Origin: a virus
Length of the DNA: 64,000 nucleotides
IMG/VR virus record: IMGVR_UViG_3300027852_000036
Direction: 5' to 3' (one strand)
Under the pieces are notes generated by a model that worked only from the letters and a program-made list of their open reading frames with translations, was not told the origin of the DNA and searched no databases. A program made the translations under genes and the position numbers. This document shows, in pieces, positions 1 through 62,916 of the stretch (positions are counted from its first letter, which is position 1; every line of letters starts with the position of its first letter).

Positions 1-3000
1 CTCCAAAGTGTCTGGAGTGATAAGGTTGCCAGATAAGTCAACGCCTTCGCCCGCTGCGCCAAGTACCTTAGAGTATTGATCCCAAACGGTGCGGAACCCT
101 AATAGTGCTTGCTTAGAGGTTATAGCCCCTGACTCTAGATCCATAGACAAGGTTTGCAGTTCATTCCCAAGCAAGGCAGCTCCCGATATATTGGTAACAT
201 CCAACGCCTGTGATATAGAACGCTCAAGTCCTGCACCCACATCAGTACCTAGTACTGATACTTTGTTTTCTAACGCCTCAGCTTCTGTAAGAATTACAGA
301 GGTAAACTCTTCCGCTAAGGAAGCCCATACACCTGCGTCTTCAAACCCTTCAAACAAACCCTTCTGGAAAGCCAGATTAGCTTGTACACCTGCTGAGTTC
401 ATTACTGAGGGATCAAACATCGAACCTTCAAAACCCAAGTAGGCGAATGCATTAACAGCTGCGGCAGTTTCTTCTACTAACCTAGCTAATGTGTCGCCTA
501 TCTCTTCGCCCGCCCTTCTGAAGTCATCAATAGGACGGAACAGTTGTTCAATCATTGAGTCAGATAAGCTATTAAAGTATCCAGATATACGATCGGCTGC
601 TTCACTACTGCTTAACCCGTCAAGGGATATGCTAGTGTTAAAGTCGCTAGCTAGTACGTTTTGGTCTACGAACCCTGCGTTTCCAACGTTCCCCTCAAAT
701 AAGGTTCCTGACTCGAAACTAGAGATCATATTGTCTACTAGATCCTGCTGGAAAGACTTAGAAGCTTTACCGAAGTGTGCTCCAGGGTCTAAGGCCATGA
801 TAAGATCAAATGTAGTATCTATAGTGTTAATGAATGCAGAAGATAAGTCATCGGATAGCTCTCCAGCAATATTCTGAGTAAACTCGTCTATACTGGCTGA
901 CTTGATGGCTCCTGTAGAAGTCTTACTAATAGTTAACTTAGTGATTACTAGAGCAGTAAGATTGTCAAAACTGTTCTTGATATAATCACTAGCCTTAGTT
1001 ATATTAGCAGGGTTAATCTGACTACCCTGAAGTTCTAAGTTAGGCTGTAATAGTACATCTTCTATTGTTCTTTCTGCACGGCGTTTAGGGCTACCTATAG
1101 CTAGGTCAGGACCAATCTCAGGCAAGTTATCAAACTGAGCGGCAACGCCTCGGTCAGTTAATCCACCGAACGCCTGCTTAGCTGAACTACCTACTGACTT
1201 GAAACTCTTACCAAGCTCTACAATAGAACCTTGCAAGTCGTACATAGATGAGAACAATCTAGTGTCAATCTCTACTAGGTCATTTATACTCTCTACTAGT
1301 GCGTTTGTTTCTAAGTCCATTACATTAGTAATGCCGTTTTCGCCTAGATTAGCTTCGTGGTTAGCTAACTGCTTCTTAACTAAAGCCTGTCCGCCGTCCC
1401 CGCCTGCTGAACTACCGCCAGAACCACCCATTAAGGAGGCCATCATCGCAATAAACCCTGCACCTATCGCCAAGCCGGGAATACCGCCTTCAGATACAAT
1501 TGCGCCGAAGCCAGAAGCTATCTTACCGGGTATGGTCGCTTGGTCTGCTGCCGCTGCCGAAGCTACGGAGGCTATATGAGCAGTTGCTGCCTGTACTTCC
1601 ATAGCTAACCTAGCTATGTGTATGGCTTGCTCTATAGCGTGTGCTGCCTTAGCTGCTGAACTACCTTCCTCAAACATACTTACCATCGCCGAAGCTTGGT
1701 CTCCGAAGCCTTTTAAACGCTGCTTCTGAATGTCTGCGTCAGTAGAGTTTTCATCTTCCTTCAGTTTAGAAAGGACTTTGTTATTCTTAGCAGTTACTTT
1801 AGCGAACTGGTTCGATCCGTCAATCCACTTCTTGAAAGGCCCATCATCTAGCCCCTCTAGTGCACTTCCTATATCCTTGAAAGGTGCATCAATAGTAGCT
1901 AATTCTCCCTTAAACTTTAGCAAGTCCTTAGTAACGCTAGAAGTCTTCTCTAGGTTCTCAAGGGCTGCTCTCTCTAAGGATAACTGGGCTTGAGCTGCGG
2001 CCAAAGCTTCCTGAACTTCAGCAGGTGCGCGGCCTCTTAACAGAGCTATTTTAGCCTCTAAAGCTGCGGTGACCTCTAGAGCTTGGTTTATCTTAGCCTG
2101 CTGCTCTAGCTTCTTAATATCTGCCTCTTCTTCAAAAGTTTTCAGCTGTATCTTAGCCTGCATAGCGGCAGTGTCCTGCTCACGCATTTCAGCCAACATA
2201 ATGAACCTATCAGACTCAACGCCTCTAATAGAGGATCTAAGATCATATTCCTGCTGAAGTTGCTGTAACGCCAACCCTTGGGAAGTCTTAAGAGTATTCA
2301 TACGTTCAGCTTGTTCAATCTCCAAGGTGAATAACTCTAATCTAACTTCTGCATTATCCTGGAGAGCTACTTTTTGCTTAGTAAGAACAGCAATACTACG
2401 CTCATTTGTAGCTATACTCTTATTCTGCAGATCTATGGCGTCTTTAATAGCTTTAGGAGCCGCATCTCGCGACCCTAGGCCATCTATCTTAGCTTGTAAA
2501 GCTGCATTCTTATTCCTAATAGTAGCAATCTTATTCTCTAGAAGCACCCGCTCTCTTCCTAGCTCTAAGGCTTTAGCGGCCACCCTAACTTCAGTATCAC
2601 CAACCTCTCCAGCCTTTCCACTGGCTTTCAAAGTACGTAGCTCTGCTTCATACTTTAGCTGAGATTCATAAGTAGATGCTTGAAGATCTTTATTGGCTAG
2701 TGCGATATTCCTCTGCTTCTCCATTGACCCAGTAAGTCTTTCTAACCCTTCCCTAGTCTTATCGGTTAAGCTTGAGAACTCCCTTAACTGGTCAAGGTTA
2801 TTAGACAGACTATCCAGTCCTTCGGTAGGCGTCTTCGCCAGCTCCAACAACCTTTTGGCTTCGGTAACACTTAAACCAATAGTTCGTAGAGTTTTCTCAC
2901 CTATCTTGGCAATATCACCCTGTACGTTACGTAAGGCTTCCGAACTAATAATATCCGAAGGTAAAGTAACTACAGCGTTGGTGACTATCGTATCTATCTC

Positions 3001-5298
3001 TTTCCTAGTTCGATCTATCGCAGCGTTTAAATCCCTAGTTACACGGTATCGCTGCTGACTAGTAATGCCCGCGTCGGCACCCCCGGCTGCTTCGCCTCGT
3101 CCACGGCTCCTAGTACCTTCAATAGCTTTCAAAGCCTTCTGCGAACTGAGTATGGTCGCTTGTAGTTTTTCTACCCTACCGGCATTAGCAGTAACTTCTA
3201 AGGAGAACTCACCGGTGTTAATTAACTCTTCTAACCCTTCCAGTTCTGTCTTAAACTCTACTAGCGAGGAAGAGTTAAAGGCCGATGATACTTTATCTAG
3301 CTGAGTATTACCTTCGAAAGACTTTAAGTACTTAGTGGTTTCTCTTTCTAAGTCTTCAATAGCCTTAGCGTACCCTTCAGTCTTTCCTTGAGCAGTTTGA
3401 GCAACAACAGCCTGAGCCTCAATTGCGGCCTGAGCTTCTTTAAGTATCGCAGGAATTTTAGCGAAGTCTTTGGGATCTACGTTTAATAGGTCCTCTAGTC
3501 GCTTTTGTAGCTTGGTCTGTTTTAGTGCTTTAGCTCCGTCCAAGATCTCCTTCTTAACATCTTGAAACTTCTCTAAAGTATATTGCAGGTTACGTTCTGG
3601 TACCTTTTCGAAAGCGTCTATGGTCGCCGTTAAGCCGCTACCAAGGTTTACTAAGTTATTAGCCAGTAATTTGGTGAGCCTTGTTGGTTCTATAAATGCT
3701 TCAGTTGCTGCGGTACTTAACTCTTTAAACCCTTCTAAAGGTTTCCTCAATTCCTCTGAGTAGCCTTTAGTGGCCTTAGTTAGATCTTCTATACCTTTTG
3801 GGTTATATAACCCAGTGGCAGCACCTATTCTGTCAAAGACACTTACGAGCGGCTCTAGTATACCTAGTGCGCTTGCTAATTTCTCTAAAGGTTTTGCGAA
3901 TAACTGGAAAGCTATCGTGGCCATAGATATCCACCCCGCCAGTTTAAATACTAGTCCACCGAGAGCTCTGATACCGCCCGCAGCCTTACCGAAAAGCTGC
4001 ATAGAGGCAGAGGCTGCAACTAATAGAGGACTCATGGTACGTAGTTGACTATTTACCCCGGCCATTACTGCCTGAGCTTCTATACCTCCTACCATACCTG
4101 CTGAGAAAGCTACCTGCATAGAGGTTCCAGCTAACCTTGCGCCACTAGCTACAGCACTTAATGAGGTATTGAAAGAGGTCATCGTTCCAGTAAGGGCCCT
4201 AGTAGAGAGGGATGACCTTATAGTGGCCTTCTCGAACTGAGCTAGGTTTGCTGTATGTTTTTCTACTATCTTTGTAGATAAGGAGTTATGCCAATCAGAA
4301 AGGGCTGGTATTGCCTGTTTTACTAGTCCTCTAACCAATAAGAACATACCTGCTTTAAGTGCTCCTGCACTTTCGGTAAACACACCTATAACACCAGTAG
4401 CGTCGATAAATCCTGTAACCATAGAGAGTACACTGTCTTTCAAGTCTACCATCTGTGAAGCTACTTTACTATAGGGATTGTTTGCTGCTTCTTTACCTAT
4501 CCGCTCGAATACTTCTAAACCTTGACGCATAGCTTCATTAGAGAACGCTTGACGTCTCTGTAACTCAGATAACTCAGACTGTGCTAAGTTATTCGCGTCA
4601 GCATACTTACGAGTAGCTTGTTCAATCTTAACGAAGATACCCAATTCATCAAGTATTTCAGGTTCCATCTTAGCGATACCCTTGGTGAGACGTTCTACGG
4701 AATCCGTAATATCCCTACCGAAAGCTTTAGAAGCTCCAAGAGCTACCTTTGCTAAGTCTTTTGTGAATTTAGTATCAAACCCTGCTGCAGCAGCCTGAGA
4801 AGCGAGCTTCATAGCAGTTGCTAGGGTGATTGTGTTATTGGTGCCTTCCTTCAGTGCTGCGGACATAGAGGTAAGTGATCTACCTGTCTGGGCTGCAAGA
4901 GACTCCTGTGCTTTAATTACGCCTTTTAAATCAGCAGACTGCTTCAACTGATCGAAGGCAGCGCCTACAGCCCATATATTAGCGGCTACTGTTGCGTATA
5001 CGTGTACTAAACCGCCCAACCCTTGAGACTGTTTAGCGAAATCCTTGGCACCCCTGCTAGAGGTGTTGCTGAAAGACTTGGCGGCCCGATCGGCTTCGCT
5101 GATCGACGTAGTGTAAGACTTAACACCTTCTGTAGTCTTTCCAAGAGCCTTACCAGCTCCTTGAGTAAATTTAGTAGGGTTTATTGGTTTCTCTAATTTA
5201 TCTAGAGACGCGCTTAATTTGCTAATTCCATCAGTTACCTTCTTCAGACCTTTGTCTGTTATCTCGATAACTACCTTTCTTTTCTCGTCTTTAGCCAT
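1..5298 (-). CDS. Tail tape measure protein (T5 pb2-like), runs off the left edge of the window
   Basis: Missing from the ORF track because it has no stop in the window. ATG at 5298 reads MAKDEKRKVVIEITDKGL...SRGAKDFAKQSQGLGGLVHVYATVAANIWAVGAAF...EILDELGI, which is T5 pb2-like. It lies directly after the tail chaperones. The frame was only spot-checked for stops (up to 1766 codons). Confidence 0.85.
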   Translation of the reverse strand, partial: MAKDEKRKVVIEITDKGLKKVTDGISKLSASLDKLEKPINPTKFTQGAGKALGKTTEGVKSYTTSISEADRAAKSFSNTSSRGAKDFAKQSQGLGGLVHVYATVAANIWAVGAAFDQLKQSADLKGVIKAQESLAAQTGRSLTSMSAALKEGTNNTITLATAMKLASQAAAAGFDTKFTKDLAKVALGASKAFGRDITDSVERLTKGIAKMEPEILDELGIFVKIEQATRKYADANNLAQSELSELQRRQAFSNEAMRQGLEVFERIGKEAANNPYSKVASQMVDLKDSVLSMVTGFIDATGVIGVFTESAGALKAGMFLLVRGLVKQAIPALSDWHNSLSTKIVEKHTANLAQFEKATIRSSLSTRALTGTMTSFNTSLSAVASGARLAGTSMQVAFSAGMVGGIEAQAVMAGVNSQLRTMSPLLVAASASMQLFGKAAGGIRALGGLVFKLAGWISMATIAFQLFAKPLEKLASALGILEPLVSVFDRIGAATGLYNPKGIEDLTKATKGYSEELRKPLEGFKELSTAATEAFIEPTRLTKLLANNLVNLGSGLTATIDAFEKVPERNLQYTLEKFQDVKKEILDGAKALKQTKLQKRLEDLLNVDPKDFAKIPAILKEAQAAIEAQAVVAQTAQGKTEGYAKAIEDLERETTKYLKSFEGNTQLDKVSSAFNSSSLVEFKTELEGLEELINTGEFSLEVTANAGRVEKLQATILSSQKALKAIEGTRSRGRGEAAGGADAGITSQQRYRVTRDLNAAIDRTRKEIDTIVTNAVVTLPSDIISSEALRNVQGDIAKIGEKTLRTIGLSVTEAKRLLELAKTPTEGLDSLSNNLDQLREFSSLTDKTREGLERLTGSMEKQRNIALANKDLQASTYESQLKYEAELRTLKASGKAGEVGDTEVRVAAKALELGRERVLLENKIATIRNKNAALQAKIDGLGSRDAAPKAIKDAIDLQNKSIATNERSIAVLTKQKVALQDNAEVRLELFTLEIEQAERMNTLKTSQGLALQQLQQEYDLRSSIRGVESDRFIMLAEMREQDTAAMQAKIQLKTFEEEADIKKLEQQAKINQALEVTAALEAKIALLRGRAPAEVQEALAAAQAQLSLERAALENLEKTSSVTKDLLKFKGELATIDAPFKDIGSALEGLDDGPFKKWIDGSNQFAKVTAKNNKVLSKLKEDENSTDADIQKQRLKGFGDQASAMVSMFEEGSSAAKAAHAIEQAIHIARLAMEVQAATAHIASVASAAAADQATIPGKIASGFGAIVSEGGIPGLAIGAGFIAMMASLMGGSGGSSAGGDGGQALVKKQLANHEANLGENGITNVMDLETNALVESINDLVEIDTRLFSSMYDLQGSIVELGKSFKSVGSSAKQAFGGLTDRGVAAQFDNLPEIGPDLAIGSPKRRAERTIEDVLLQPNLELQGSQINPANITKASDYIKNSFDNLTALVITKLTISKTSTGAIKSASIDEFTQNIAGELSDDLSSAFINTIDTTFDLIMALDPGAHFGKASKSFQQDLVDNMISSFESGTLFEGNVGNAGFVDQNVLASDFNTSISLDGLSSSEAADRISGYFNSLSDSMIEQLFRPIDDFRRAGEEIGDTLARLVEETAAAVNAFAYLGFEGSMFDPSVMNSAGVQANLAFQKGLFEGFEDAGVWASLAEEFTSVILTEAEALENKVSVLGTDVGAGLERSISQALDVTNISGAALLGNELQTLSMDLESGAITSKQALLGFRTVWDQYSKVLGAAGEGVDLSGNLITPDTLE

Positions 5299-5320
5299 AT
5301 TATTTCCTTAGCTTAGATAC

Positions 5321-5356
5321 AAAGAAGGCAGAGCTACGTTACATAACTCTGCCCTT
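5321..5356 (-). terminator. Intrinsic terminator after the tail chaperones
   Basis: Minus strand GGCAGAGT-loop-GCTCTGCC followed by TTCTTT. Confidence 0.55.
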
Positions 5357-5364
5357 AACGCGTG

Positions 5365-5679
5365 CTATTTCTTCTTCTTCTTAGTCTTCTTCTTCTTAGC
5401 ATTTAAGTTTGTTATTTTTATATTTTCCAGCTCTTTAATCGCACGTAGAGCCAGCATTCGGTCTTTAATCTCGAATATGTCGAATATAGTGTTTAGGCAG
5501 GATAAGTCCTTACCTAGGTAATTGCCTCCCATAGCGTCCCAGTTATCTGGTAAGTATGAGAAGGCTGCTACATAGTTTTGAAAACAGATTGGTAGGTCCG
5601 ATATCTCTATCGGTACCTCATCCTCGTTAGGTTCTTTGCCAAGCTGGTGCATTAACTCGTAGTACCTATCCTTAGTCAT
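5365..5679 (-). CDS. Tail assembly chaperone, downstream (T-like) ORF; probably also the C-terminal half of a -1 frameshift product
   Basis: Lies between chaperone and tape measure genes; its frame stays open upstream to 5769, overlapping the end of the preceding ORF. Confidence 0.7.
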   Translation of the reverse strand: MTKDRYYELMHQLGKEPNEDEVPIEISDLPICFQNYVAAFSYLPDNWDAMGGNYLGKDLSCLNTIFDIFEIKDRMLALRAIKELENIKITNLNAKKKKTKKKKK

Positions 5680-5729
5680 TCCTACTTCTTGATTACTGTA
5701 GTAACGGGTTAGGTCTTCGAATGCTCCCT

Positions 5730-6137
5730 CTACTTGGCCTTCGTAAAATTCTGTAAGTCGCCAACTATCTCAGCGACCCACGTATCGAACTCACCTGAGT
5801 CCTTCAATAATACCCGGGCATTCTCTACGGAATACTCCAGTTCTGCTTCTTCATCTACTGAGCTGATATCGATAGGTAGTAGATTAACTAAGTACTTGTA
5901 CTTTAAGCCTGACCATCCTTTAACTACAGAGTCGATATACAGTTTAGTAAACAGCTCTGAGTCAATCTCTTCAACGGGCTGTCTGCTCTTCTTATCAATT
6001 CTGGTTATGGTCGCTTTGGTTCGTAGATTTCCCAGTACTTTCTTACCTAGAAATGCTAGGTTAATACTGAAGCCTTCACAGCCAGGGTAGTCTACAGTTA
6101 CAAGTTTTTCTTCAACTAAGAGGTCTTTAAGATTCAT
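5730..6137 (-). CDS. Tail assembly chaperone (G-like)
   Basis: 135 aa, directly after the tail tube gene; YPGCEGFSINL and VKGWSGLKYKYL resemble T5-type chaperones. Confidence 0.75.
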   Translation of the reverse strand: MNLKDLLVEEKLVTVDYPGCEGFSINLAFLGKKVLGNLRTKATITRIDKKSRQPVEEIDSELFTKLYIDSVVKGWSGLKYKYLVNLLPIDISSVDEEAELEYSVENARVLLKDSGEFDTWVAEIVGDLQNFTKAK

Positions 6138-6180
6138 ATTTGTCCTTGAGGGTCAAGGGGCCGTTAAGCCCCTTTGCTGT

Positions 6181-7611
6181 TTAAACTGCGTAGTAACTAA
6201 CAGTCATTTCATCGGTAGTAGTAAGTCCTGTTCCCAGAGCAGTAGCTTCAATGCTTACTGAGATAACGTCTTCAGACTCAATTTGTGGTATTACAATGTG
6301 TGCTCTAGGCATTTCAAAAGATACGAAAGGAGCAACCGCGCCACCCATATTCAACTGAATTACGAAAGAGTTAGTCACGTCAGGATCAGCACTATTAACG
6401 TCGGCCAACATATCAGACAGTAAAGTCATTGACTTGTTAGTGTCAGTGTCCAAGTAGCAAGCAAAGCTACAAGTAATAGAGCGAGTACCTGTAAAGTGTC
6501 CGATCGGCTTGTTCACTTCACCCAACTCTTCAGGAGTAAGGAAAGTAGTTCCGTTATCGATACTTACTGTAGCACTAGTAAGTCCTAAATTATATGTACC
6601 AGAAGCAGGGCCGCCAGTCATAGTAATAGTACTTAACTTGTTCTTCAGGAAGGAAGCGGTACTAGGTACAGCTAAGTAGTCCGTGCCAGCTACTGAAGGA
6701 GTAGTTGCAGGAGTTACGATATCGTAGAATGAAGCCTGACCAGTCCAAGCGATCATGCCAATACCATCAATACTAAGATCGATTTCAGCAGCATTTACAA
6801 TTGCTTCGGTCATTCGGTACTGAGCACTACCTGTATCAATATATAAGTAGTACTTAGGAAGTTCGTGTACGTTTGAGTTAGCGAAGTCTACGTTCATAGC
6901 ACCTGGAGTAGCCTGAGCGCCTCCGTTAGTGATAGCATCCCACATAACCTTCTCTGCACAAGTATGGTTAGTAGCAGAAGCTGAACCGTCTGCAGCAGCT
7001 GAGATTGTAACAGTACCAACACCAGTCATCTGAGCAACGTCGAACAAGTCGTCATCGCCGCCAACAGTAGCTGTAATAGCGATAGTAGACGTAGCACCGG
7101 CAGTGTCGCTTACAAAGCGTAGGTTACCAGCGTGAAAGTCTACAGAAGCACCCTGTGAGCCGCCAACTAAGGCATCATTCAGCAAAGTAATCAGAGCAGC
7201 AATAGTAGTAGTTCCAGCACCAGTAGAGATTACTAGAGGAGTAACCCCACCACCGTCTACGTTGATAGAGAAGTCGTAGTCAGTAGAAGCAGTAAGTCCA
7301 GTATCTGTACCGTATGTTACAGTATTGCCAAACGTAATGTCTTGAGTACCAGGAGTAGTTGCAGCAGCTTCCTGATAAGGACGAACGTAAGTAGAGAAGC
7401 TGAAATCTACGGGATCAAGAGCGGTATTAAATACCTTCTGACCACGATTAGGAGCAGCGCCCGCTTCGTTCAAAGTAATTTCTTGAGTGGATGTGCTTTG
7501 GGAGAAAGAAAAACCATCTAATACTTTCAATTCCCAAGTGTTTGCGGTAGTCCAGCCTACACTAACTGTAGAAAGGTATACCTTCGCGTCACGTGATAGA
7601 GTTAAAGCCAT
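6181..7611 (-). CDS. Major tail tube protein (T5 pb6-like) with an internal inserted domain
   Basis: Motifs EITLNEAG...RGQKVFN...FSFSTYVRPY, LKNKL, NNxTFLTPE, PIGHFTG, IPQIESEDV match pb6; synteny agrees. Confidence 0.9.
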   Translation of the reverse strand: MALTLSRDAKVYLSTVSVGWTTANTWELKVLDGFSFSQSTSTQEITLNEAGAAPNRGQKVFNTALDPVDFSFSTYVRPYQEAAATTPGTQDITFGNTVTYGTDTGLTASTDYDFSINVDGGGVTPLVISTGAGTTTIAALITLLNDALVGGSQGASVDFHAGNLRFVSDTAGATSTIAITATVGGDDDLFDVAQMTGVGTVTISAAADGSASATNHTCAEKVMWDAITNGGAQATPGAMNVDFANSNVHELPKYYLYIDTGSAQYRMTEAIVNAAEIDLSIDGIGMIAWTGQASFYDIVTPATTPSVAGTDYLAVPSTASFLKNKLSTITMTGGPASGTYNLGLTSATVSIDNGTTFLTPEELGEVNKPIGHFTGTRSITCSFACYLDTDTNKSMTLLSDMLADVNSADPDVTNSFVIQLNMGGAVAPFVSFEMPRAHIVIPQIESEDVISVSIEATALGTGLTTTDEMTVSYYAV

Positions 7612-7628
7612 TTATAAATCCTCGATAA

Positions 7629-8078
7629 TTATAATACTTGATATTGAACCTCTAAGGATAACTCAGCCACACCCAAAGGGTCTAGTAGGCCTTCATCCGT
7701 TACGATCGAGGTAATCTGTAAATCCTGAGTTGTGGACTCAGTACCATTTGCGGAAGTATAAGGAATCTCCCTGTTTGCATCCAGCAATCTTTCAATATCT
7801 TCTAGGAGGGACTCCAAGGCAGCAGCCGGGTCTTCTCCATCAGATACATATATTCGCATAGTTATGTTAAGGAAGCCCCATTTAAATGCTGCAGGCAGAT
7901 ATTCTCTAGTTTCACTACCGGGTACGACCGATATGTATGGGAACTCTAATATTTCATCCCAAAACTTCAGCTTGCTCTCAGCCCCACACTGTATATCGTT
8001 AGTATAAGGGTCAAGACCGATTAAGTCGTCGTTTAAGATACTTACTAGGGAATTGGTTATTGATGATCTTACACTCAT
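7629..8078 (-). CDS. Tail terminator protein (T5 p142-like)
   Basis: KFWDEILEFPYISVVPGSETREY and SIVTDEGLLDPLG motifs; immediately upstream of the tail tube gene. Confidence 0.8.
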   Translation of the reverse strand: MSVRSSITNSLVSILNDDLIGLDPYTNDIQCGAESKLKFWDEILEFPYISVVPGSETREYLPAAFKWGFLNITMRIYVSDGEDPAAALESLLEDIERLLDANREIPYTSANGTESTTQDLQITSIVTDEGLLDPLGVAELSLEVQYQVL

Positions 8079-9346
8079 TCTCTAATACTCCTAAACTTCT
8101 GCCTGGTTAGCTCCATAGCTACATCGCGTATGGATTTGTCCATTAGTGGTACGGGATTGTACCCTAAATGCCCTAAAGCCCCATGAGGCTCGAAAGTCTC
8201 GTATGGTCGCTTCATATAGTTATAGTAAATATTAAGTGCCGCATCCCGACCTTCCGTAATCCGGGTAACTTGAACACTCTCCGCGAACCGTCCCGTCCTG
8301 TATATCAGATTTGGGCGACCCATGTTTTCTTCTACCGCCTTAGCGAGCTTGGCGTTTATAAGTTCTTTAAGACCTAGAGCAGTAGTTCCAGTTCTACTCT
8401 TGGGCTTTTGATTAGTTAGGCGTTTCTGTTTCGCCTTGGAAACCTTTGCTCTCTTTTTCTTTGTCTTATCAGCAGGCTTACCAAATAAGCTGCCAGAGTC
8501 TGAGACCTTACCTTTGTAGGAATACTTGTTACCCCACAGAGAGGACTTAATATCTTCAGTTATCTGATCGTTAATAGTCTTGCTTCCGGCGTATATATCT
8601 AGTATCCCGCCCATCAACTCTTTTACGGCCTTGTCTTCCGCTGCAAGAACCGCTTCCCTGAACTCCCCACTCTGAGGAATTATGTAAGAAAAGCCAAGTT
8701 CTCCAGAAAGACGACCAGCTTGAGTAGTTGCCTTAAAGCTAGCAGCATATTCCGAGGAGGCCAATTCTGCCGCGTTTAAACTATTTATGGTATTAGTTAC
8801 AGTATTAAGTAACTTCCGGGCTTCAGGCTTATTAGCTAACCTTTTCTGCAGGTTAACCAGATGCGCTGTAGAGGTGTGTTGCTTAGAAGATCTACCTACC
8901 TGACCCAAGTCATACCCTTTTGTGGGCCCGCGTAACTGTAGTTCTGATATATTTAACTCCCTAGACACATAGGCGTTAGACCTATCTAAGATATTTGTTA
9001 GGGTTCGTAAATCTTTTACTACCAGTATAATGTCTAAAGAGCCGGAGGAGCTATATAGTATAGGCTTCTTATACCCATTCTCTACTAACTTAGTTAACTG
9101 CCCCTTAGTGCCGACAGTAGTAGTCAAAGAGCTAAGATACTTCTTGTAAGACTCTGCTACTAAAGGAGCAAGGTCTCTATTCTCTTTATTTAACAGCTGA
9201 CTGCGTATGGTCGCTTCGGATAATTGGAATACGATGTACTCACTATCAGAGTCTTTACGAGTTTTCGCCAGTGATTTATACGCACTAGAGATGCGTTTCT
9301 TTAGTGTGCGCTCTAGTGCTTCTTCTAGCGTGATTCTCTTGGCCAT
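8075..9346 (-). CDS. Tail completion protein (T5 p143-like), N-terminally extended
   Basis: C-terminal MGRPNLIYRTGRFAESVQV...YMKRPYETFE...PLMDKSIRDVA; synteny. Confidence 0.7.
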   Translation of the reverse strand: MAKRITLEEALERTLKKRISSAYKSLAKTRKDSDSEYIVFQLSEATIRSQLLNKENRDLAPLVAESYKKYLSSLTTTVGTKGQLTKLVENGYKKPILYSSSGSLDIILVVKDLRTLTNILDRSNAYVSRELNISELQLRGPTKGYDLGQVGRSSKQHTSTAHLVNLQKRLANKPEARKLLNTVTNTINSLNAAELASSEYAASFKATTQAGRLSGELGFSYIIPQSGEFREAVLAAEDKAVKELMGGILDIYAGSKTINDQITEDIKSSLWGNKYSYKGKVSDSGSLFGKPADKTKKKRAKVSKAKQKRLTNQKPKSRTGTTALGLKELINAKLAKAVEENMGRPNLIYRTGRFAESVQVTRITEGRDAALNIYYNYMKRPYETFEPHGALGHLGYNPVPLMDKSIRDVAMELTRQKFRSIRE

Positions 9347-9894
9347 TACCGTACTCTATATAGGTCTAGTACACGCTTAATGTGTGGAGGCAGGTGACTG
9401 TCTTCAATCTCGACTGCTTCTGCATTAATATTAGTACTAGATATTTTATTCTGGGACTCACGCTTATGGTAGTAAGTAACTAAGTCGATAGCTGCTAACT
9501 TCATAGCGTTGGGAGTAGAAGTAAAACCACCAGAATACTCAATCACGAACGGTTTGTGTATGGTCGCTAGAGGTATTGATGTGTGGTCTAGTAACTCTAT
9601 TGAACCCTCCTCATTATATACCACGTAGAAGTTGGATGCTATTTCTTGCAGCACCATCTCGGTATCATAGTAGGAAAGTGTAGTTACTGTACTTATGGGT
9701 AGGTTTCTAACAAACAGCATTTCTTCACTAGAAGCGAGCTGTTCGGTGAAAGTAGAAGAAGTGAATACTCGGCCGCAGTAAGTTTCGATAAAACTGTCCA
9801 CTAACTCAATTGTTAGGGTCAGCTTTGCGTCTGCCTTATTATTGCTTATGCCAGAGAATGTTTTATAATCTTGTAAACTTATTAGGGTAGCCAT
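9346..9894 (-). CDS. Head-tail connector / head completion protein (T5 p144-like)
   Basis: LISLQDYKTFSGI...IETYCGR...YSGGF...MKLAAIDLVTYYHK...LPPHIKRVLDLYR. Confidence 0.85.
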   Translation of the reverse strand: MATLISLQDYKTFSGISNNKADAKLTLTIELVDSFIETYCGRVFTSSTFTEQLASSEEMLFVRNLPISTVTTLSYYDTEMVLQEIASNFYVVYNEEGSIELLDHTSIPLATIHKPFVIEYSGGFTSTPNAMKLAAIDLVTYYHKRESQNKISSTNINAEAVEIEDSHLPPHIKRVLDLYRVR

Positions 9895-9934
9895 TAGTTT
9901 CCTTTTTTAATTACCACTCGGTTGTGTAGGAATT

Positions 9935-9963
9935 AAAAAAGAAACCCGAAAGCTCGGGTTTCT
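9935..9963 (-). terminator. Intrinsic terminator after the capsid gene
   Basis: Minus strand GAAACCCGAG-CTT-TCGGGTTTC followed by TTTTTT. Confidence 0.8.
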
Positions 9964-9987
9964 CTCTATTGAACGTTAGACTAAGAC

Positions 9988-11913: not shown

Positions 11914-12430
11914 CCTCCGGAGAAGGTTTAGGTGCGGGTTCAGCTACTTTAGTAGCAGGCTTCGGCTTAGGATTCTTTGCAGCTTCCTCGGCCTTCTCAA
12001 AGTCTTCCAAAGCCTTAAAGGTCTTGGTAACTTCTTTCTTAGTACTATCTATAACAGCTTTGTGGGCTTCAACAGCGTCTTCGGCCATCTTAGCGGCGGC
12101 TAGTGCTGTAGATAGTTTATCTTCAAGCTTAGCAGCTTCTTTAGCGGCTCCTTTATCAGCTACAATAGCTAAACGTATGGCAGCCCGTAAAAAGCCAAAT
12201 ACTGATTTTCGTTTCTGTTTGCGAGATTTAACATCGCCTCGTTGCAGCATATGATGCTTAGAAGGGTCGCGACGGTACTCACCGTGCATCCTAGTCAACT
12301 CTCTGCAGAAGTTTTCGTAAGTTTGGTAGTGGTCTAGAACCTCACGCAACGTGTGCGGCGAGTCATCCTGACATCTACGAAATCGTGTTGCTGATAAAGA
12401 TACACGTCCGTCGTATCTAATACCGTCCAA
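11897..12430 (-). CDS. Hypothetical head-region protein with Ala/Lys/Glu-rich helical C-terminus; start uncertain
   Basis: Between portal and protease (the T5 decoration-gene position). The frame is open upstream of TTG 12430; a possible ATC start is at 12484. Confidence 0.6.
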   Translation of the reverse strand: MDGIRYDGRVSLSATRFRRCQDDSPHTLREVLDHYQTYENFCRELTRMHGEYRRDPSKHHMLQRGDVKSRKQKRKSVFGFLRAAIRLAIVADKGAAKEAAKLEDKLSTALAAAKMAEDAVEAHKAVIDSTKKEVTKTFKALEDFEKAEEAAKNPKPKPATKVAEPAPKPSPEDDTSA

Positions 12431-12462
12431 GTCGAAGACAAATTTAAATAAGTCTTCTAAGT

Positions 12463-16623: not shown

Positions 16624-16643
16624 GTTACCTCCAAGAAAGACTA

Positions 16644-16672
16644 AATATACTGTAGTTCTTCTTGCGGGTCAA
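16644..16672 (-). promoter_or_regulatory. Promoter for the terminase operon
   Basis: Minus strand TTGACC-N17-TATATT, about 20 nt before the TerS ATG. Confidence 0.6.
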
Positions 16673-50797: not shown

Positions 50798-51730
50798 ATG
50801 AGCCAATCATTCAAAGAACGATGCGACATTATGTATGATAAGGGTACGCCCATTATTAGTGATGCTCAGTATGACAACCTTTTTGGAGAAGGAGCGACCA
50901 TAGGCAGGCCGGGCTACTCTGAAGATATTAAGCATCCGTTCCAGATGTATTCGCTTCAGAAACACTACACGGAAGACGGCGAACCGCCTATCCCTGTAAA
51001 AGACTGTATAAAGACTCCTAAACTAGACGGGGCGGCTTGCTGCTTAGTTTACATAGACGGAGAGCTTAGTAGGGCAACTACTAGAGGTGATGGTATCGCT
51101 GGTAAGGTAATCACTGAGAAACTGAAACTACTTGTACCTAATAGTATAAAAACTAACGAACCTCTCATTCAGATAACTGGAGAGATCGTGGCACTCGCTT
51201 CCGTGGAGAATTCTAGGAATCAGGCCGCTGGGTCACTAGGTTTAAAGTCTATCGAAGACTTTAAAATCCGTATGGAAGAGATCGGACTGAAATTCATTGC
51301 TTATAGCACTACTAGCATCGAGGCTTCCTATAAACTGAGCCTAGCAGGTTTAGCTCTCAAAGGTTTCAGTACTGTAATAGGAGACTGTTCTGGTTTTCCT
51401 ACAGACGGGGAAGTGTATCGCATAGAGCGTCAGCAAGACTATATAGCTGCTGGTTTTACTAGTAAGCATCCTAAGGGTGCTTTCGCTTGGAAAGAGAAGC
51501 AAGAAGTAGTACAAACCAAACTATTGGACGTAATTTGGCAAGTAGGGAAGTCTGGTAAAGCTACCCCTATTGCCATCTTAGATCCTGTAGTAATCGGGGA
51601 AGCTACAGTAGCTAAGGCAACGCTGAATAATATGGCATTTATTGATAACCTGGGCCTGACACTGGGGTGCACTGTTGAACTTATCAGAGCAGGGGAGATC
51701 ATCCCAGAAATAGTTGGGAGGGCTGATTAA
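50798..51730 (+). CDS. NAD-dependent DNA ligase, adenylation/OB subunit (split ligase A)
   Basis: KLDG, TRGDG, ITGE, PTDG, WQVGKSG, ATLNN, RAGEIIP. Confidence 0.92.
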   Translation: MSQSFKERCDIMYDKGTPIISDAQYDNLFGEGATIGRPGYSEDIKHPFQMYSLQKHYTEDGEPPIPVKDCIKTPKLDGAACCLVYIDGELSRATTRGDGIAGKVITEKLKLLVPNSIKTNEPLIQITGEIVALASVENSRNQAAGSLGLKSIEDFKIRMEEIGLKFIAYSTTSIEASYKLSLAGLALKGFSTVIGDCSGFPTDGEVYRIERQQDYIAAGFTSKHPKGAFAWKEKQEVVQTKLLDVIWQVGKSGKATPIAILDPVVIGEATVAKATLNNMAFIDNLGLTLGCTVELIRAGEIIPEIVGRAD

Positions 51731-52583: not shown

Positions 52584-53309
52584 ATGGCAAAACAAACTTG
52601 GACTGACGAACGAACTGCTCACCTCACCGGTCTCGTAGAAGAGGGTGTTGAAGTAACTCAGAAAGACTTGGCGGGTATCGCTGAGGAACTTGAGACTTCA
52701 ACTCGATCAGTTGGTAGTAAGCTCCGTAAAATGGGGTACGATGTAGAGAAAGTATCTGCCACTAACACACGTAAGTGGACTCCAGAACAGGAAAGTGACT
52801 TAGTAGATTTTCTAGGTGAAAATCCCGGTTCTTATACGTTCCGAGAAATTGCTGCACTGTTCCACTCAGGACATTTCTCTAGCAAAGCTATTCAGGGCAA
52901 GATCCTTAGCCTTGAGTTGACTGGCTCTGTCAAGCCTGCTGAAAAGGTTGTAGCGGCCCGTCAGTACACTGAAGAGCAGGAATCTGTATTCTTGGCTATG
53001 GCTAAGAAAGGGGACTCTGTAGAAGCTATCGCAGAAGCTATGGGTAAGTCTCTCCAGTCTGTTCGTGGTAAAGCACTCAGCTTCATCCGAACTGTTGAAG
53101 GCTTTAAAATGCCGCATCAAGAAACCTCAACCGCTGCTTCTAAAGAAGACGCTATCTCAGGTCTCGGCGATATTTCTGGTATGACCGTAGAAGACATTGC
53201 TTCTGCAATTGATAAGACTCCACGAGGTGTTAAGACTTCTCTTACACGTCGAGGACTTACCTGTGCAGATTACGATGGCGCAAAACGTGCAGCTAAGCGC
53301 AAAGACTAG
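52584..53309 (+). CDS. D5: T5 D5-like DNA-binding transcription regulator
   Basis: Repeated HTH units; WTDER...RSVGSKLRKMG, KAIQGKILS, SVRGKALS, RGVKTSLTRRGL...DYDGA. Confidence 0.85.
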   Translation: MAKQTWTDERTAHLTGLVEEGVEVTQKDLAGIAEELETSTRSVGSKLRKMGYDVEKVSATNTRKWTPEQESDLVDFLGENPGSYTFREIAALFHSGHFSSKAIQGKILSLELTGSVKPAEKVVAARQYTEEQESVFLAMAKKGDSVEAIAEAMGKSLQSVRGKALSFIRTVEGFKMPHQETSTAASKEDAISGLGDISGMTVEDIASAIDKTPRGVKTSLTRRGLTCADYDGAKRAAKRKD

Positions 53310-53684: not shown

Positions 53685-55061
53685 ATGATTGACCTAGAAG
53701 GGGTAGTATTAGCTAAATTGCTTTCTGAATCTCCCGAGGTTGAACACTACGCTAAGTTAAAGATGGGCTTCTTTTCAGAAATGTATAAGCCTATATACAG
53801 AGCAGTAGTTCGAGTATATCAAACAACGGGCGAGGTGCCTTCCTTTGATACCTTGGAAGTTTTAGTTAAAGACGCTGAATTACAGAACGGGTTGGCTGCC
53901 CTTAAATCTATAGAGCTACCGAACGTCGACCTGGACTTAGCCATTGAGGGTTTGACGGATAAGTACGCACAAACAGAGGCTTTAACCAGTATAGACTCAT
54001 TCCTAGATAAAGTAACGATGTTGAACACTATAGAGATTAAAGAATCACTATCTATGTTAGCGTTGGAACTCGATACCAAGTTACATACGTCAGAAACGGT
54101 AGTATACGCGGATCAGATCCACTTATTCAGAACACAGGAAGAGGACAATCTGGCTAGAATTCCTACAGGCATTAGCAACGAATTTGACGCTAAGGCTGGC
54201 GGATTCTTTAATGAAGATTTAATACTATTAGGTGGTAAGCGAGGAGCAGGTAAATCCTTAGTATGTGCCAACCTAGTAGCTTCTCAATACAAATTAGGCA
54301 AGGTTAGTGTTTACTATACCATCGAAATGTCGAGAGAAGAAACATTAGGGAGAATAATCTGTATATTGGCTAATGTTAGTCATAGTAACTACAGGTTAGG
54401 CGAGCTAAGTAATGAAGAGAAAGTAGCTCTAGCAAAGACACGTAGCGGGATGTTCCTAGGTGCTGACGAGGTTTTAAATGCCTTTATAGCCTCTACGGAG
54501 AAAGACTTGGTAGAGTTTGAGAATGTCTTATTGGATACGTTCGAACTTAATCCGGTTAAACAGATTGTAGTAGTGGATGACAGAGACTTGAGCTTATCTA
54601 GTATAGATCTTACATTACAGAAGTTCAGACTACAGTATAAAGAAAACTTATCATTGGTGGCGATCGACTACCTTAACCAGATTGTATTAGAGAGTTCAGT
54701 TGACCAGTACGACTGGAAAGATCAAATACTGATAAGTAAGCAATTAAAGAATCTTGCTAGGAAGTACGAACTTCCAATTGTTAGCCCGTTTCAGATTGAC
54801 GAATCAGGGCAGGCTAGATTCTCTAAAGGTATTCTTGATGCTTGTGACGTTGCCTTTAATCTAAGCGCAGATGAGCATATAGAGCTGAAGGTTGTGAAAG
54901 CTAGATCCTTTAATGATTCACACACTTTCATACAGCCAATGAATTGGGAGACATTAACTATGGACAATAAGACTATAGAAAGGCCGAAAGAGCCTGAAGA
55001 AGGGGCAGAAGATGGCGGATTCAGGGGACTACCAATGGCTGGGACGGATGACTTAGGATGA
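53685..55061 (+). CDS. DnaB-like replicative helicase (T5 D6-like)
   Basis: IPTG, GGKRGAGKS, YTIEM, IDYLNQI, SPFQID, FSKGILD. Confidence 0.9.
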   Translation: MIDLEGVVLAKLLSESPEVEHYAKLKMGFFSEMYKPIYRAVVRVYQTTGEVPSFDTLEVLVKDAELQNGLAALKSIELPNVDLDLAIEGLTDKYAQTEALTSIDSFLDKVTMLNTIEIKESLSMLALELDTKLHTSETVVYADQIHLFRTQEEDNLARIPTGISNEFDAKAGGFFNEDLILLGGKRGAGKSLVCANLVASQYKLGKVSVYYTIEMSREETLGRIICILANVSHSNYRLGELSNEEKVALAKTRSGMFLGADEVLNAFIASTEKDLVEFENVLLDTFELNPVKQIVVVDDRDLSLSSIDLTLQKFRLQYKENLSLVAIDYLNQIVLESSVDQYDWKDQILISKQLKNLARKYELPIVSPFQIDESGQARFSKGILDACDVAFNLSADEHIELKVVKARSFNDSHTFIQPMNWETLTMDNKTIERPKEPEEGAEDGGFRGLPMAGTDDLG

Positions 55062-55912
55062 CTCCACAAGAGATATTAGACGGAGAAGGCATCTACTACC
55101 TATACAAAGGTAGAGATTTACTGGTACGGTGCCTTTCTCCCGACCACGAAGATTCAAACCCATCCATGCGGGTGGATAAAGTAACAGGTGTTTTTAATTG
55201 CCTATCTTGTGGCTTTAAAGGGAGCCTATATACTAAGTATAAAATTGCAAGAGATATTCAATTTGAACTACTTAGTAAAGTAAAAGGAAAGTTAAGAGAT
55301 ATTGTAATATCTACAGAAGGTAGAAGTATTCCGGAAGGTTCTATAGAGTATAATAGGGCTTCATTCAAAGGGATACCGGCAAAAACTCTTAAAGAATATG
55401 GGGCATTTACTAATGACACAGTATTTCCAGATAGGATAGTATTTCCTATCAAGGATGCCGTAGGAAGGATAATAGCTTTCTCAGCTAGATCTTTGTATAG
55501 CGACCTTCCCCCAAAGTATATCGTATCGCCCGCTGAGGTGGATATACCGTTTTTCCCTGCCATTATTACGCCAGAGTATAATAGTATGTTTATAGTAGAA
55601 GGTATATTTGACTACATAAACTTGAAGTACTTAGGCTGCGACAACGCAGTATGTATATTCGGCACTGTTAAACTAACAGAACGTAATGTAGTGGAAAAAC
55701 TAGCCCCTTACAGGTTGCAGGGCGTGCAGAAGATAAATATAATGATGGACGGCGATGATGCCGGACGTAAAGCTGCTAAAAAGATAAAGTATTTAATTGA
55801 TGATAAAACAGAGTTTGTAACTAACATTGTATACTTAGAAGATGGACAAGACCCCGGTGGTTTAACTCCTGAGCAAGTCGCTAAGTACAAAAGCACGCTG
55901 TATAGCAGCTAG
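55058..55912 (+). CDS. DNA primase (Zn finger + TOPRIM)
   Basis: CLSPDHEDSNPS...CLSCG, RIVFPI, VEGIFD, MDGDDAG, DPG. Confidence 0.92.
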   Translation: MTPQEILDGEGIYYLYKGRDLLVRCLSPDHEDSNPSMRVDKVTGVFNCLSCGFKGSLYTKYKIARDIQFELLSKVKGKLRDIVISTEGRSIPEGSIEYNRASFKGIPAKTLKEYGAFTNDTVFPDRIVFPIKDAVGRIIAFSARSLYSDLPPKYIVSPAEVDIPFFPAIITPEYNSMFIVEGIFDYINLKYLGCDNAVCIFGTVKLTERNVVEKLAPYRLQGVQKINIMMDGDDAGRKAAKKIKYLIDDKTEFVTNIVYLEDGQDPGGLTPEQVAKYKSTLYSS

Positions 55913-58830: not shown

Positions 58831-59333
58831 AAATATCGGAAGTAACCTTTCCGGTCTATAAAATGCCTAATGGGAAGATAACTAGAGAAGGTACTGTAGT
58901 TATCATTACCAACGACCATGGACGATCTACAGTACTTGATGATACTAGCCTGTACGGGTCATTTGGAAGCAGGCGGATCAAGTTGGGTGAAAAGGTGGGA
59001 GAGAAACTCGTAGCAAAGCTGAAGAAGGGCTTTCCCACTATCCAGTCTTTAGTAGTGAGGTCGAAAGACCTCTACGTTGACTCCAACGGTAAGTTATTTA
59101 ATTATGTACCTTCCGTTACGTGCAAGATCACTTACTATCCTGTAGTAAGTCAGGTAGTCCGTAAACAATCTAGCCCATTGGCATACTTGAAGGGTTATCC
59201 TACTCCAGTTAAAATACCTATGCCACTGTCTGAAGACAGTGATTGGTATTTAGGAATCGGCGTCTACGAAGGAGGGACTATCCTATTTGATATTTCCGAC
59301 ACTATGAAAAAGAAAACGTGGCGTAAGATATGA
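58827..59333 (+). CDS. T5-conserved hypothetical protein downstream of the polymerase
   Basis: FPVY...VLDD...RRI...YVDSNGK...TWRKI; synteny. Confidence 0.7.
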   Translation: MKISEVTFPVYKMPNGKITREGTVVIITNDHGRSTVLDDTSLYGSFGSRRIKLGEKVGEKLVAKLKKGFPTIQSLVVRSKDLYVDSNGKLFNYVPSVTCKITYYPVVSQVVRKQSSPLAYLKGYPTPVKIPMPLSEDSDWYLGIGVYEGGTILFDISDTMKKKTWRKI

Positions 59334-60625
59334 AGGCAGTTATTAGTGACCATATCTACATATCTGTAGATGATGAGTTGAAAGAATCGCTTATGGCGGA
59401 ATTAACCTATAAGCTAACAAAAACAGTAAGGGGAGGAAAGAAAGTACCCTACAAAGAGAAGAAGTACGTAGTCGTTAGAGACAATATTCTAGCGATACCG
59501 GTAGGTCGATACGATCTGATACCGGAAGGGCACGAAATAGTAGATAAACGAGCAAGCCCTGAAGCAGACTTCCCGGACTTTAAGTTTGAACTACGGGACG
59601 ATCAGAAGGTAGTAGTAGAAGACATAGAAGGTAGTGCAATTATTAATGCCCAACCAAGTTGGGGTAAGACTTTCTGCGGTATCGCTACTGCCCAAAGACT
59701 AGGGATGAAGACACTAGTTATAGTACATACTCTATTATTATTTGACCAATGGGTCAGTGAGATAGAGAAGACACTAGGGATTAAGCCTGGAGTTATAACG
59801 GCAGGTAAGTATGATATAGATAGTCCCATAGTAGTATCTAATATCCAGTCTTTGAAGAAGCACGTTAGTAAGATAACTAAGGAATTCGGTGTAGTTATTG
59901 TAGATGAGGCACACCATACGCCTGCATCTACATTTACTGGAATCTTATTAAAACTACATAGTAAGGTTAAGATAGCACTATCCGCTACCCTTAACAGGAA
60001 AGATGGTTTGGGAGTATTCCTCCCCGGATTTTTCTCTACCAACATATATGTACCGAAGGAGGCTAACCATATTAAGCCTACTATTCTTACATATAATACA
60101 GGTATTACTTTTAATGATGATAACGGAGTGCCTTGGGCACTTAGGATAAACGAACTATATAACGATGAAGCCTTTCAGAATCTAGTAATGTGTTTGGCTC
60201 TTACTTTTGTGCAGAAAGGGCATCCGACACTAGTAGTAGCCAATAGAGTGGCACTGCTAGGGCACTTCCACGAAATACTGGGAGAGGGTTCCATACTTAT
60301 AACGGGAGCTACTAAGAACAGAGATGAGTTATTGGATACAGTAAGAAGTGGAGAGAATAACCTTATATTTGGTACCTCCTCTATATTCCAAGAAGGAATC
60401 AACATCCCTAGACTGTCTTGTTTGATTGCAGCGCAGCCCATTAACAATGCTTCTATGATACAACAGTTAACTGGTCGAATTGCTAGAGAGTGTGAGGGTA
60501 AACTCCCTCCTGTAGCAATAGATCTAGTGTTACATGGTCGTACTGCTAGGAAGCAATATAATAGTAGACTAGCTACTTATGCTGCTTTAGGGTACTCAGT
60601 AACTAAACTGGAGAAGATAGAGTAA
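59330..60625 (+). CDS. D10: Superfamily II helicase (T5 D10-like)
   Basis: QPSWGKT, DEAH, SAT, QLTGRIAR. Confidence 0.9.
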   Translation: MKAVISDHIYISVDDELKESLMAELTYKLTKTVRGGKKVPYKEKKYVVVRDNILAIPVGRYDLIPEGHEIVDKRASPEADFPDFKFELRDDQKVVVEDIEGSAIINAQPSWGKTFCGIATAQRLGMKTLVIVHTLLLFDQWVSEIEKTLGIKPGVITAGKYDIDSPIVVSNIQSLKKHVSKITKEFGVVIVDEAHHTPASTFTGILLKLHSKVKIALSATLNRKDGLGVFLPGFFSTNIYVPKEANHIKPTILTYNTGITFNDDNGVPWALRINELYNDEAFQNLVMCLALTFVQKGHPTLVVANRVALLGHFHEILGEGSILITGATKNRDELLDTVRSGENNLIFGTSSIFQEGINIPRLSCLIAAQPINNASMIQQLTGRIARECEGKLPPVAIDLVLHGRTARKQYNSRLATYAALGYSVTKLEKIE

Positions 60626-60966: not shown

Positions 60967-60970
60967 TACA

Positions 60971-61960: not shown

Positions 61961-62916
61961 AAGTATTATTTATATCTGACCACCATATAAAGCTGGGTCA
62001 GCGTAAAGTCCCGGTAAGTTGGGCTAAGAACAGATTTCAGCAGTTGTGGGATAAGGTAGTAAAAGTAGCTACCGATAAAGGAGTAGCGACCATATTCCAT
62101 GGAGGCGATATATTCGATGACGTACCTTCTATGGCGGAACTAGAAGTGTACGGGAACATGCTTAACGCATTCGCAGATTTTGATAACATTTTAATGCCGG
62201 GAAACCATGAGGCATTAAAGAAAGGAACTTCATTTCTGGAACACTTGCAACCATTGACACCTTTTCCGATAGTGTCTAAGTGGATGCCAGAGGAGGAAGT
62301 GTTAGAAAGGTTTTCAATACCTAATACTAGCATTCTACCCTACACGGACTTGAAGAAGAATATATGGCATAAAGGGGCAAAGAGTAAGATACTATTTACT
62401 CATGTACGAGGTGAGATACCTCCCCATGTAATCCCCGAGGTACCATTAGAGTTATTCGATGGTTGGGAGACAGTCTACGCAGGAGATTTGCATTCACATG
62501 AATTGTGTCAGCGTAATATAGTCTACCCAGGAAGCCCTATTGGTACGACGTTTAGAAGATCAGAGGCTAAAGGCACTAACGGAGTGCTTATTATAGACAC
62601 GGAAACTAATGAGTGGGAGTTTGTCGATTTAGATATGCCCCAACTGATTAAAAAGACCGTGTACTCTGAAGATGAGATAATTCCCACAACCCCGCACCAT
62701 ACCGTGTATGAATTAGTTGGGGCCGAGACTTCCATGAGCAAGGTAGAGCATTCCGATCTGGTTGATAAAAAGATCAGCAATGTAGACTTAGTATCGGAAA
62801 CAGTTACTATAGTAGAAGCGTCAGCGGAAGAAGAGTTATCCGAGTATTTAACACAAAAAGAGGGTATAACAGACCCTAGCCCATATGTAGGGCTGTTTAA
62901 GGATATAATATTATGA
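61957..62916 (+). CDS. D12: Recombination nuclease, SbcD/Mre11-like (T5 D12-like)
   Basis: SDHH, GGDIFD, GNHE, FTHVRGEIPPHV, GDLH, YPGSP. Confidence 0.9.
   Translation: MKVLFISDHHIKLGQRKVPVSWAKNRFQQLWDKVVKVATDKGVATIFHGGDIFDDVPSMAELEVYGNMLNAFADFDNILMPGNHEALKKGTSFLEHLQPLTPFPIVSKWMPEEEVLERFSIPNTSILPYTDLKKNIWHKGAKSKILFTHVRGEIPPHVIPEVPLELFDGWETVYAGDLHSHELCQRNIVYPGSPIGTTFRRSEAKGTNGVLIIDTETNEWEFVDLDMPQLIKKTVYSEDEIIPTTPHHTVYELVGAETSMSKVEHSDLVDKKISNVDLVSETVTIVEASAEEELSEYLTQKEGITDPSPYVGLFKDIIL

Follow-up and report, generated by a model that had tools for sequence, protein, structure and literature searches.

A strand-polar, over-represented octamer reverses orientation at a non-coding repeat cluster in a T5-like marine phage

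Results

The window analyzed here is a stretch of 64,000 nucleotides (nt) from the virus record IMGVR_UViG_3300027852_000036. We examined in it the octamer GCGACCAT and its heptamer core CGACCAT, whose copies change orientation at a non-coding repeat cluster at 23.3-24.3 kb. The window covers, in reverse orientation, the ENA contig ERZ27237542:k141_55396, a marine metagenome contig of 83,896 bp, and three loci extended it to coordinates -14,329 to 69,682. The ends of the contig did not overlap, and the genome was not closed. A tandem repeat of about 66 nt (approximately 68683-68946), inside a leftward late gene at the contig end, may explain why the assembly stopped there. Over 8792-57770, the window is 115 bp longer than the k141_55396 coordinates imply, probably because a gene with 63-bp repeats at 22338-23213 differs in length.

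The gene order is that of T5. Late genes run leftward up to 21.9 kb and are followed by a rightward block at 22.0-26.8 kb that contains the cluster, by small early genes running leftward at 27.0-41.3 kb, and by replication genes running rightward at 41.4-68.3 kb. The late block is of the T5 type, with a small terminase (TerS; 16135-16623, reverse strand), PhoH, large terminase, portal, a protease-capsid fusion, and tail genes. Between the large terminase and the portal lies a homologue of the T5 nicking endonuclease (13699-14073, reverse strand), which carries a PF26848 label. In tblastn comparisons it was 38-46% identical to homologues in T5-like phages, and the matched gene is annotated as "nicking endonuclease" in some T5-like records and as a hypothetical protein in others. 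The replication block, also of the T5 type, comprises a polymerase, ribonucleotide reductase, a split NAD-ligase, a D5-like protein (52584-53309), a DnaB-like helicase and a DnaG/T7-like primase (53685-55912, forward strand), a D10-like helicase, a D12/D13-like nuclease, a flap endonuclease, and a dUTPase. The polymerase shares just 47% identity with its T5 counterpart. A megablast search against phages found no close relatives; among viral_contigs, the best match by polymerase was 68% identical over 5.5 kb and the others were at 56% or below, and among metagenome_contigs, the capsid reached 34-36% at most. Judging by its gene content and order, the phage is a distant, uncultured, marine relative of T5. 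The only other sample that carried it was JGI 3300002180, with a 99.97% identical sequence.

The initial annotation had listed 22 copies of GCGACCAT found by eye, and a sequence search of the window returned every one of them at the same coordinate and on the same strand. About one copy would be expected in 64 kb: dinucleotide shuffles of the window gave a mean of 1.0 and a maximum of 4, and an order-3 Markov model of the window predicted 0.9. CGACCAT is the invariant core, with 38 copies in the window against 3.7 expected under the same model (P ~2e-25). When all 6- to 11-mers were surveyed with this model, CGACCAT was the most over-represented 7-mer, and almost all of the top-ranked 8- to 11-mers were extensions of it. 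Maximal-order Markov statistics are unsuitable for this word because its sub-words themselves carry the signal. On the 84-kb source contig, CGACCAT occurs 47 times, of which 36 are outside the cluster, and AAGCGACCATAC occurs 7 times. We also applied codon-aware null models to this contig with the cluster masked. Shuffles of synonymous codons that kept every protein gave 7.3 copies of CGACCAT and 1.7 of GCGACCAT, and shuffles of whole codons gave 5.0 and 1.1, respectively, against 36 and 22 observed. The highest octamer count in 300 codon-aware shuffles was 6. The over-representation thus held against codon-aware nulls as well as against Markov models. The copies lie at a density of one per 2-3 kb.

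Outside the cluster, orientation depends on the arm. All eight octamers on the left arm of the window (1532-13433) are reverse. The one at 1532-1539 lies on the sense strand of a tape-measure-like gene, where GCG-ACC-ATA encodes Ala-Thr-Ile (ATI), and those at 3152-3159, 3620-3627, 6007-6014, 9207-9214, and 9560-9567 encode ATI as well. The copy at 8203-8210 is read in another frame, CGA-CCA-TAC, as RPY, a peptide conserved in the T5 and Thalassa homologues, and the copy at 13433-13440 encodes ATI in the portal gene, at a position that is variable among homologues. Reverse heptamers follow at 15064-15070 in the large terminase gene (STI, where homologues have SLF or SLL), at 19661-19667 in the presumed pre-early block, and at 22059-22065, antisense in a rightward open reading frame, which is the last reverse copy before the cluster. 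Beyond the cluster, all seven octamers of the window (25884-62086) are forward, and the seven octamers in between, at 23340-24143, are mixed. The right arm begins with a forward heptamer at 25741-25747 in the gene for an orphan protein of 415 amino acids (aa), followed by octamers at 25884-25891 (within TTGAAGCGACCATAC) and 26169-26176. Four forward copies are antisense in leftward early genes: octamers at 31620-31627 and 36171-36178 and heptamers at 31730-31736 and 37231-37237 (the latter as TGAATCGACCATGAGC). Farther right are forward heptamers at 43752-43758, at 45907-45913 in nrdA (encoding IDH, which the homologues of T5 and PSTCR5 conserve), and at 58913-58919, and forward octamers at 44616-44623 (RPY, of which RP is conserved in homologues), at 50894-50901 in the ligase subunit gene (ATI), and at 62086-62093 in the D12-like (Mre11/SbcD-like) gene (ATI).

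On the whole contig, the arm rule was obeyed by all 22 octamers outside the cluster (P = 5e-7) and by 32 of the 36 CGACCAT copies: 18 of 19 are reverse to the left of 22.1 kb, and 14 of 17 are forward to the right of 24.4 kb. The flip at the cluster, as first described from the octamers, is therefore also seen with the larger set of heptamers. The left extension of the contig contributed eight further heptamers, seven of them reverse, and the right extension contributed one, at about 67,268, which is forward. Within the window, the discordant heptamers, all reverse, are at 27189-27195, 42238-42244, and 60534-60540. All four discordant copies of the contig have poor flanks, and their number matches the 5-7 chance copies of the codon-aware shuffles; we counted them as chance background.

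The first polarity switch lies between 22.1 and 23.3 kb, at the repeat cluster. A second switch, which the initial annotation had proposed to look for, lies in the interval that starts at 67.3 kb and ends where the two contig ends would join, a junction left unassembled. This interval includes the convergent boundary of early and late genes at about 68.3 kb, and the near matches found beyond it, at 68,945 and 69,334, have the reverse orientation. The two switches are roughly antipodal on the circular map; the exact antipode hinges on the unassembled gap. Of the 36 copies outside the cluster, 28-29 are on the sense strand, and the leftward early block (27.0-41.3 kb) is the sole region where transcription and position disagree. 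There, four of five exact copies and six of eight near matches are forward, that is, antisense, including those at 31620 and 36171 that had been pointed out from the start; elsewhere, nearly all copies are sense. Polarity therefore tracks position in the genome and not transcription, as had been claimed. The GC skew of the phage tracks transcription only.

We next considered how the word is accommodated in coding DNA. It had been described as sitting in different reading frames, and several frames do occur (ATI, RPY, and IDH), but their use is uneven: about 20 of the 28-29 sense-strand copies are in the frame GCG-ACC-ATA/ATG, so that the statement was too strong. ATI tripeptides number 22 in the phage, where 8.6 would be expected; GCGACCATA, to which codon usage assigns about 1%, encodes 14 of them. 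The ATI copies are at positions where other residues stand in the T5, PSTCR5, and Vibrio phage homologues, whereas the RPY and IDH copies use conserved peptides. The copies are in unrelated genes, make no insertions relative to homologues, and have unrelated flanks. An alignment of 32 dispersed copies showed a full site of about 16 nt, AGCGACCAT-R-NN-C-R-N-T, i.e., A-G-CGACCAT-R-N-N-C-R-N-T. The position before the octamer (-1) is a purine in most copies, and C at +10 is present in 27 of the 32; in the predominant frame, this C is the third position of the codon after ATA. On the whole contig, 10 of 28 sense copies fall within the first 45 codons of a gene, against 20% expected (P = 0.03). The strict polarity of the arms, together with the costs in codons and amino acids, argues for selection. 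These data show that the word is written into coding sequence at a cost to proteins, and that it is a real strand-polar, directional signal under selection at the DNA level, as initially proposed.

The cluster itself (23340-24260) is non-coding and contains 11 CGACCAT cores in both orientations. Cores at 23341, 23404, 23484, 23573, 23799, 24088, and 24137 are forward, and those at 23646, 23920, 24010, and 24249 are reverse. They are embedded in at least four different repeat modules. No DnaA box (TTWTNCACA) was found within the cluster, which is followed by hairpins, an AT-rich stretch, and the promoter of the orphan gene at 24720. A gene similar to dmp, the T5 pre-early 5'-deoxyribonucleotidase gene, lies on the reverse strand at 19916-20377 (E = 5e-8 against T5 dmp) and serves as a synteny anchor. 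The order of this leftward gene at 19.9 kb, then rightward genes, then a repeat array is the layout of the left terminal repeat of T5, and it therefore puts the cluster at the position of the T5 repeats at the injection-stop (iss)/terminal-repeat boundary.

The T5-like layout, the dmp-like gene, and a rise in depth together place a presumed terminal repeat at about 17-24.4 kb, with the cluster at its boundary. In the only public run that contains the phage (X1, available as contigs), contig depth increased from about 170 (1-14 kb) to 274-330 (18-20 kb). The rise from about 17-18 kb may reflect a terminal repeat that starts near 17 kb and is covered twofold; it is compatible with such a repeat and no proof of it. 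A G-rich non-coding stretch upstream of TerS (16624-17878), with four tandem TTTCTTTTGTTTCGAACTG units, is a possible outer edge of the repeat. One contig of run X1 diverges at 16699. The metagenomic relative L145 has a similar tandem array upstream of its TerS. We detected no homologue of A1 or A2 anywhere on the contig. The 415-aa protein adjoining the cluster had no fold or family, no Atlas neighbor, a poor model, and no similarity to T5 A1, and the neighboring 240-aa protein had no fold or family and no similarity to dmp.

Related phages and possible hosts were then searched for the word. A 15-mer scan of viral_contigs gave single matches per contig only, at chance level, and CGACCAT was not enriched in T5, PSTCR5, Vibrio phage 70E37-3, Thalassa, or PM135. 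Two metagenomic relatives, L145 and L147 (64-66% portal identity), carry the nickase and the same late and packaging genes; they have 0-1 copies of the word in 16-18 kb and no other abundant dispersed word. In L147 (66% portal identity), a gene at 2510-3259, between PhoH and the large terminase, bears a precomputed, unchecked PF04896 AmoC label, which hints at a nitrifier or methanotroph host for L147.

Counterparts of the cluster unit were found in two phages. T5 (NC_005859.1) has no dispersed word of comparable excess. Its iss repeat unit, TGCAAATCCGAC, to which the cluster unit of the present phage is unrelated, is also found outside iss, at 12155 and at 78937/78952; the latter units lie where early and late genes meet, at a distance of 370 bp from the 64.8% major nick. 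In the Providencia phage PSTCR5 (MW057857.1), the 9-mer CCTGTTCCC has 15 copies against 0.42 expected. Five of them alternate in orientation in a non-coding cluster at a T5-iss-like position (60.4-62.4 kb), and 10 are dispersed without clear polarity (7 of 11 concordant). Another PSTCR5 word, GCCTTAGC, seemed polar and was rejected as a coding word of an Ala-Lys-Ala repeat. A lineage-specific cluster unit with stray copies thus recurs in the family, and here it is far more extensive and polar.

As for the host, the word never exceeded about 4-fold the control in 401 sampled genomes of Gammaproteobacteria, a level reached in G066 and G367. In five others (G023, G042, G118, G252, and G398), the first-listed GCGACCAT copies on the largest contig were nearly all on one strand, which is probably a coding-strand effect (GCG-ACC-AT). 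ThyA gave no clue to the host, since the best identity was 50% and the taxa were mixed. The Chi and KOPS sequences of Escherichia coli were not enriched in the phage.

Discussion

In cells, polar over-represented words orient machines that track along DNA, such as Chi for RecBCD and KOPS for FtsK. From the polarity, the initial annotation had suggested a directional signal for DNA translocation during injection or packaging, for recombination, or for lagging-strand priming. A signal for injection or packaging works one way along the whole molecule and predicts no flip in mid-genome; the two-armed polarity therefore excludes both and fits a process that spreads from the cluster or converges on it. 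Lagging-strand priming drew no support from the sub-words. Once the full motif copies were removed, TGGTC, GGTC, and TGGTCG were without consistent arm polarity, and GTC and GTGTC tracked the coding strand rather than position. The strand that serves as the lagging-strand template would hinge on where the origin lies. The suggestion of recombination fared better, and a Chi-like signal is still the best fit.

We tentatively rank first the reading that the word is a Chi-like signal for a helicase-nuclease that enters at DNA ends, although we put its chance at clearly less than even. The terminase would cut concatemers at the cluster, where, from the T5 synteny of the terminal-repeat boundary, the virion ends would lie. 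These ends would be the entry point of a RecBCD/AddAB-class helicase-nuclease, encoded by the host or perhaps by the phage, which would then move outward. Along both arms, the enzyme would come upon 5'-GTATGGTCGCTT-3' from its 3' side, on the strand with the 3' end, and each encounter would switch it from degradation to recombination. Approach from the 3' side on the 3'-ended strand is the active orientation for Chi. The copies on both arms are thus oriented as active Chi would be from the cluster or the ends, provided that ATGGTCGC is the strand read. The terminal repeat, as a direct repeat serving both ends, would have to carry both orientations, as the cluster does. The reading is supported by the over-representation and top rank of the word, by its polarity by position with two switches, and by selection at the nucleotide level. 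The absence of the word from the relatives L145 and L147 fits a host-specific signal, and a weak point in its favor is the TGGT core that the complement ATGGTCGC and GCTGGTGG have in common.

The Chi-like reading also resembles what has been described for Chi-rich phages, the E. coli lambdoid phage LLS and the Pseudomonas aeruginosa phage MD8 (Genome Res 2025, PMC12315714). There, too, an asymmetric word of octamer scale is the most over-represented one of the genome, has accumulated against chance to about one per 2 kb (one Chi per 1.86 kb in LLS; PMC12315714), shows strong orientation, and accumulates around the packaging site. However, the word in LLS and MD8 is the established Chi of an identified host, and it has a single orientation, only one cos end being open. 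The present phage is T5-like rather than lambdoid, with long terminal repeats that we infer from its layout, and has two arms, a bidirectional cluster, and a longer site.

Several observations weigh against this reading. The conserved site is partly bipartite and, with a length of about 16 nt, exceeds every known Chi. The roughly 4-fold maximum in the sampled Gammaproteobacteria is far below an enrichment like that of Chi in E. coli. The counterpart units of T5 (TGCAAATCCGAC) and PSTCR5 (CCTGTTCCC) are not Chi of their hosts, which suggests a phage-encoded reader. With a left virion end near 17 kb, a distance of about 6 kb would separate that end from the first copies in the correct orientation. 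In addition, the phage has end-processing genes of its own (D12/D13-like, flap endonuclease, and D10-like helicase).

A phage-encoded reader could be the T5-type nicking endonuclease, for which the word would be the target. About 40 nicks would then fall on the top strand of one arm and on the bottom strand of the other, and from their 3'-OH ends the T5-type polymerase could start strand-displacement synthesis in the outward direction. We consider this unlikely, with a small but real chance of being right. The nickase homologue encoded between the large terminase and portal genes makes it a candidate, and a site length of 9-16 nt suits a nuclease. The consensus of T5 and BF23 nicks, R/GCGCRGG, starts with purine-GCG, as does A-GCGACCAT, but only four of eight positions match it, and purine-GCG alone is shared. 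T5 has one major nick inside the iss repeats, and in the Pseudomonas phage tf the nick motifs (TACT/RTGMC) are, as here, strongly over-represented and strand-specific (PMC3517423). Nicks of T5, BF23, and tf, however, are all on one genome strand, whereas the strand flips here. The T5 consensus is rare and not over-represented in its own genome (six copies on the nicked strand against five on the other), and L145 and L147 have the nickase without an abundant word. The Logan contig breaks of run X1 did not coincide with the sites, which is uninformative at 170x depth.

The word could instead be the binding or loading site of a phage protein with its main site at the cluster, such as an iteron-like origin or terminus protein, the small terminase (a candidate reader of the cluster repeats), or a helicase/primase loader, with the helicase and primase genes at 53685-55912 supplying candidates. 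A replisome component would be loaded or oriented at the scattered copies, whose orientation would give all forks or primers of one arm a common direction. A site of about 16 nt, partly bipartite, does resemble a protein footprint on duplex DNA, and the two roughly antipodal switches are as for an origin and a terminus. The complement of the word includes the T7 primase site TGGTC, and the phage has a T7/DnaG-like primase, but the lack of consistent arm polarity in TGGTC, GGTC, and TGGTCG after motif removal speaks against this use. A GC skew that follows transcription only also counts against the reading. The cluster unit is at the place of the DRD repeats of T5, and the T5 and PSTCR5 units also have stray copies, those of PSTCR5 being without clear polarity. 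Relatives with the same replication genes lack the word, and no reader was found, the neighboring 415-aa and 240-aa proteins being orphans. On balance, a loading site also appears unlikely, at perhaps one chance in a handful. It is equally doubtful, in the more specific form, that a phage-encoded reader (the nickase or a helicase/primase loader) uses some 40 oriented sites and that nick- or primer-started strand-displacement synthesis runs away from the cluster on each arm.

A link to transcription is improbable. The word would be, for example, a late promoter, a pause, or an antitermination signal acting through the non-template strand, and late antisense transcription would be driven or marked by the copies that are forward in the leftward early block. 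This would account for the sense-strand majority outside the cluster and for the mild excess near gene starts. The copies are nevertheless intragenic, mostly in one codon frame rather than upstream of genes, do not resemble sigma-70 elements, and are antisense in the leftward early block. A simpler explanation of the frame bias is that the word is best tolerated where it encodes ATI. That the word has no present function and was left behind by duplication or by an earlier process of mutation or of mobile elements is very improbable. Apart from its occurrence in one lineage only (two near-identical samples), nothing spoke for this, and the unrelated genes and flanks, the lack of insertions against homologues, the strict polarity, and the costs to codons and amino acids all contradict it.

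Two further systems are similar in part. With KOPS, other architecture-imparting sequences, and the Chi skew of bacteria, the word shares a switch of orientation at two roughly opposite points, independent of gene direction. Those sequences belong to the chromosomes of cells and have FtsK or RecBCD as readers, whereas this is a virus of about 90 kb, and no reader of the FtsK/SpoIIIE type was found among the approximately 30 proteins scanned, a subset of the phage genes. The iss region of T5 (DRD units, Repeat Region 3; Davison 2020, bioRxiv 10.1101/866236) is likewise a dense non-coding array at the inner edge of the pre-early/terminal-repeat region, with lineage-specific units of which a few copies are elsewhere in the T5 genome. 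In contrast to the present phage, with 36 dispersed and polar copies, the T5 units have one orientation and are almost confined to the array. The T5 array also has paired DnaA boxes, which the cluster lacks, and its repeats are unlike the unit found here. Polar words known from phages are accumulations of Chi and nick motifs, with a single orientation in the documented cases; what is new is that the word has opposite orientations on two arms of a T5-like phage and that a cluster with both orientations lies at the presumed repeat boundary.

Selection on this word has been strong enough to alter protein sequences. A Chi-like role would show how a phage whose two ends are exposed tames a host nuclease without a protein inhibitor, and the word would reveal the Chi of a marine host. 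Were the copies nick or loading sites, the long-unexplained nicks or iss repeats of T5 would gain a testable function. Should a phage-encoded reader prove true, a replichore-like, multi-origin architecture of a virus would be written into its coding sequence.

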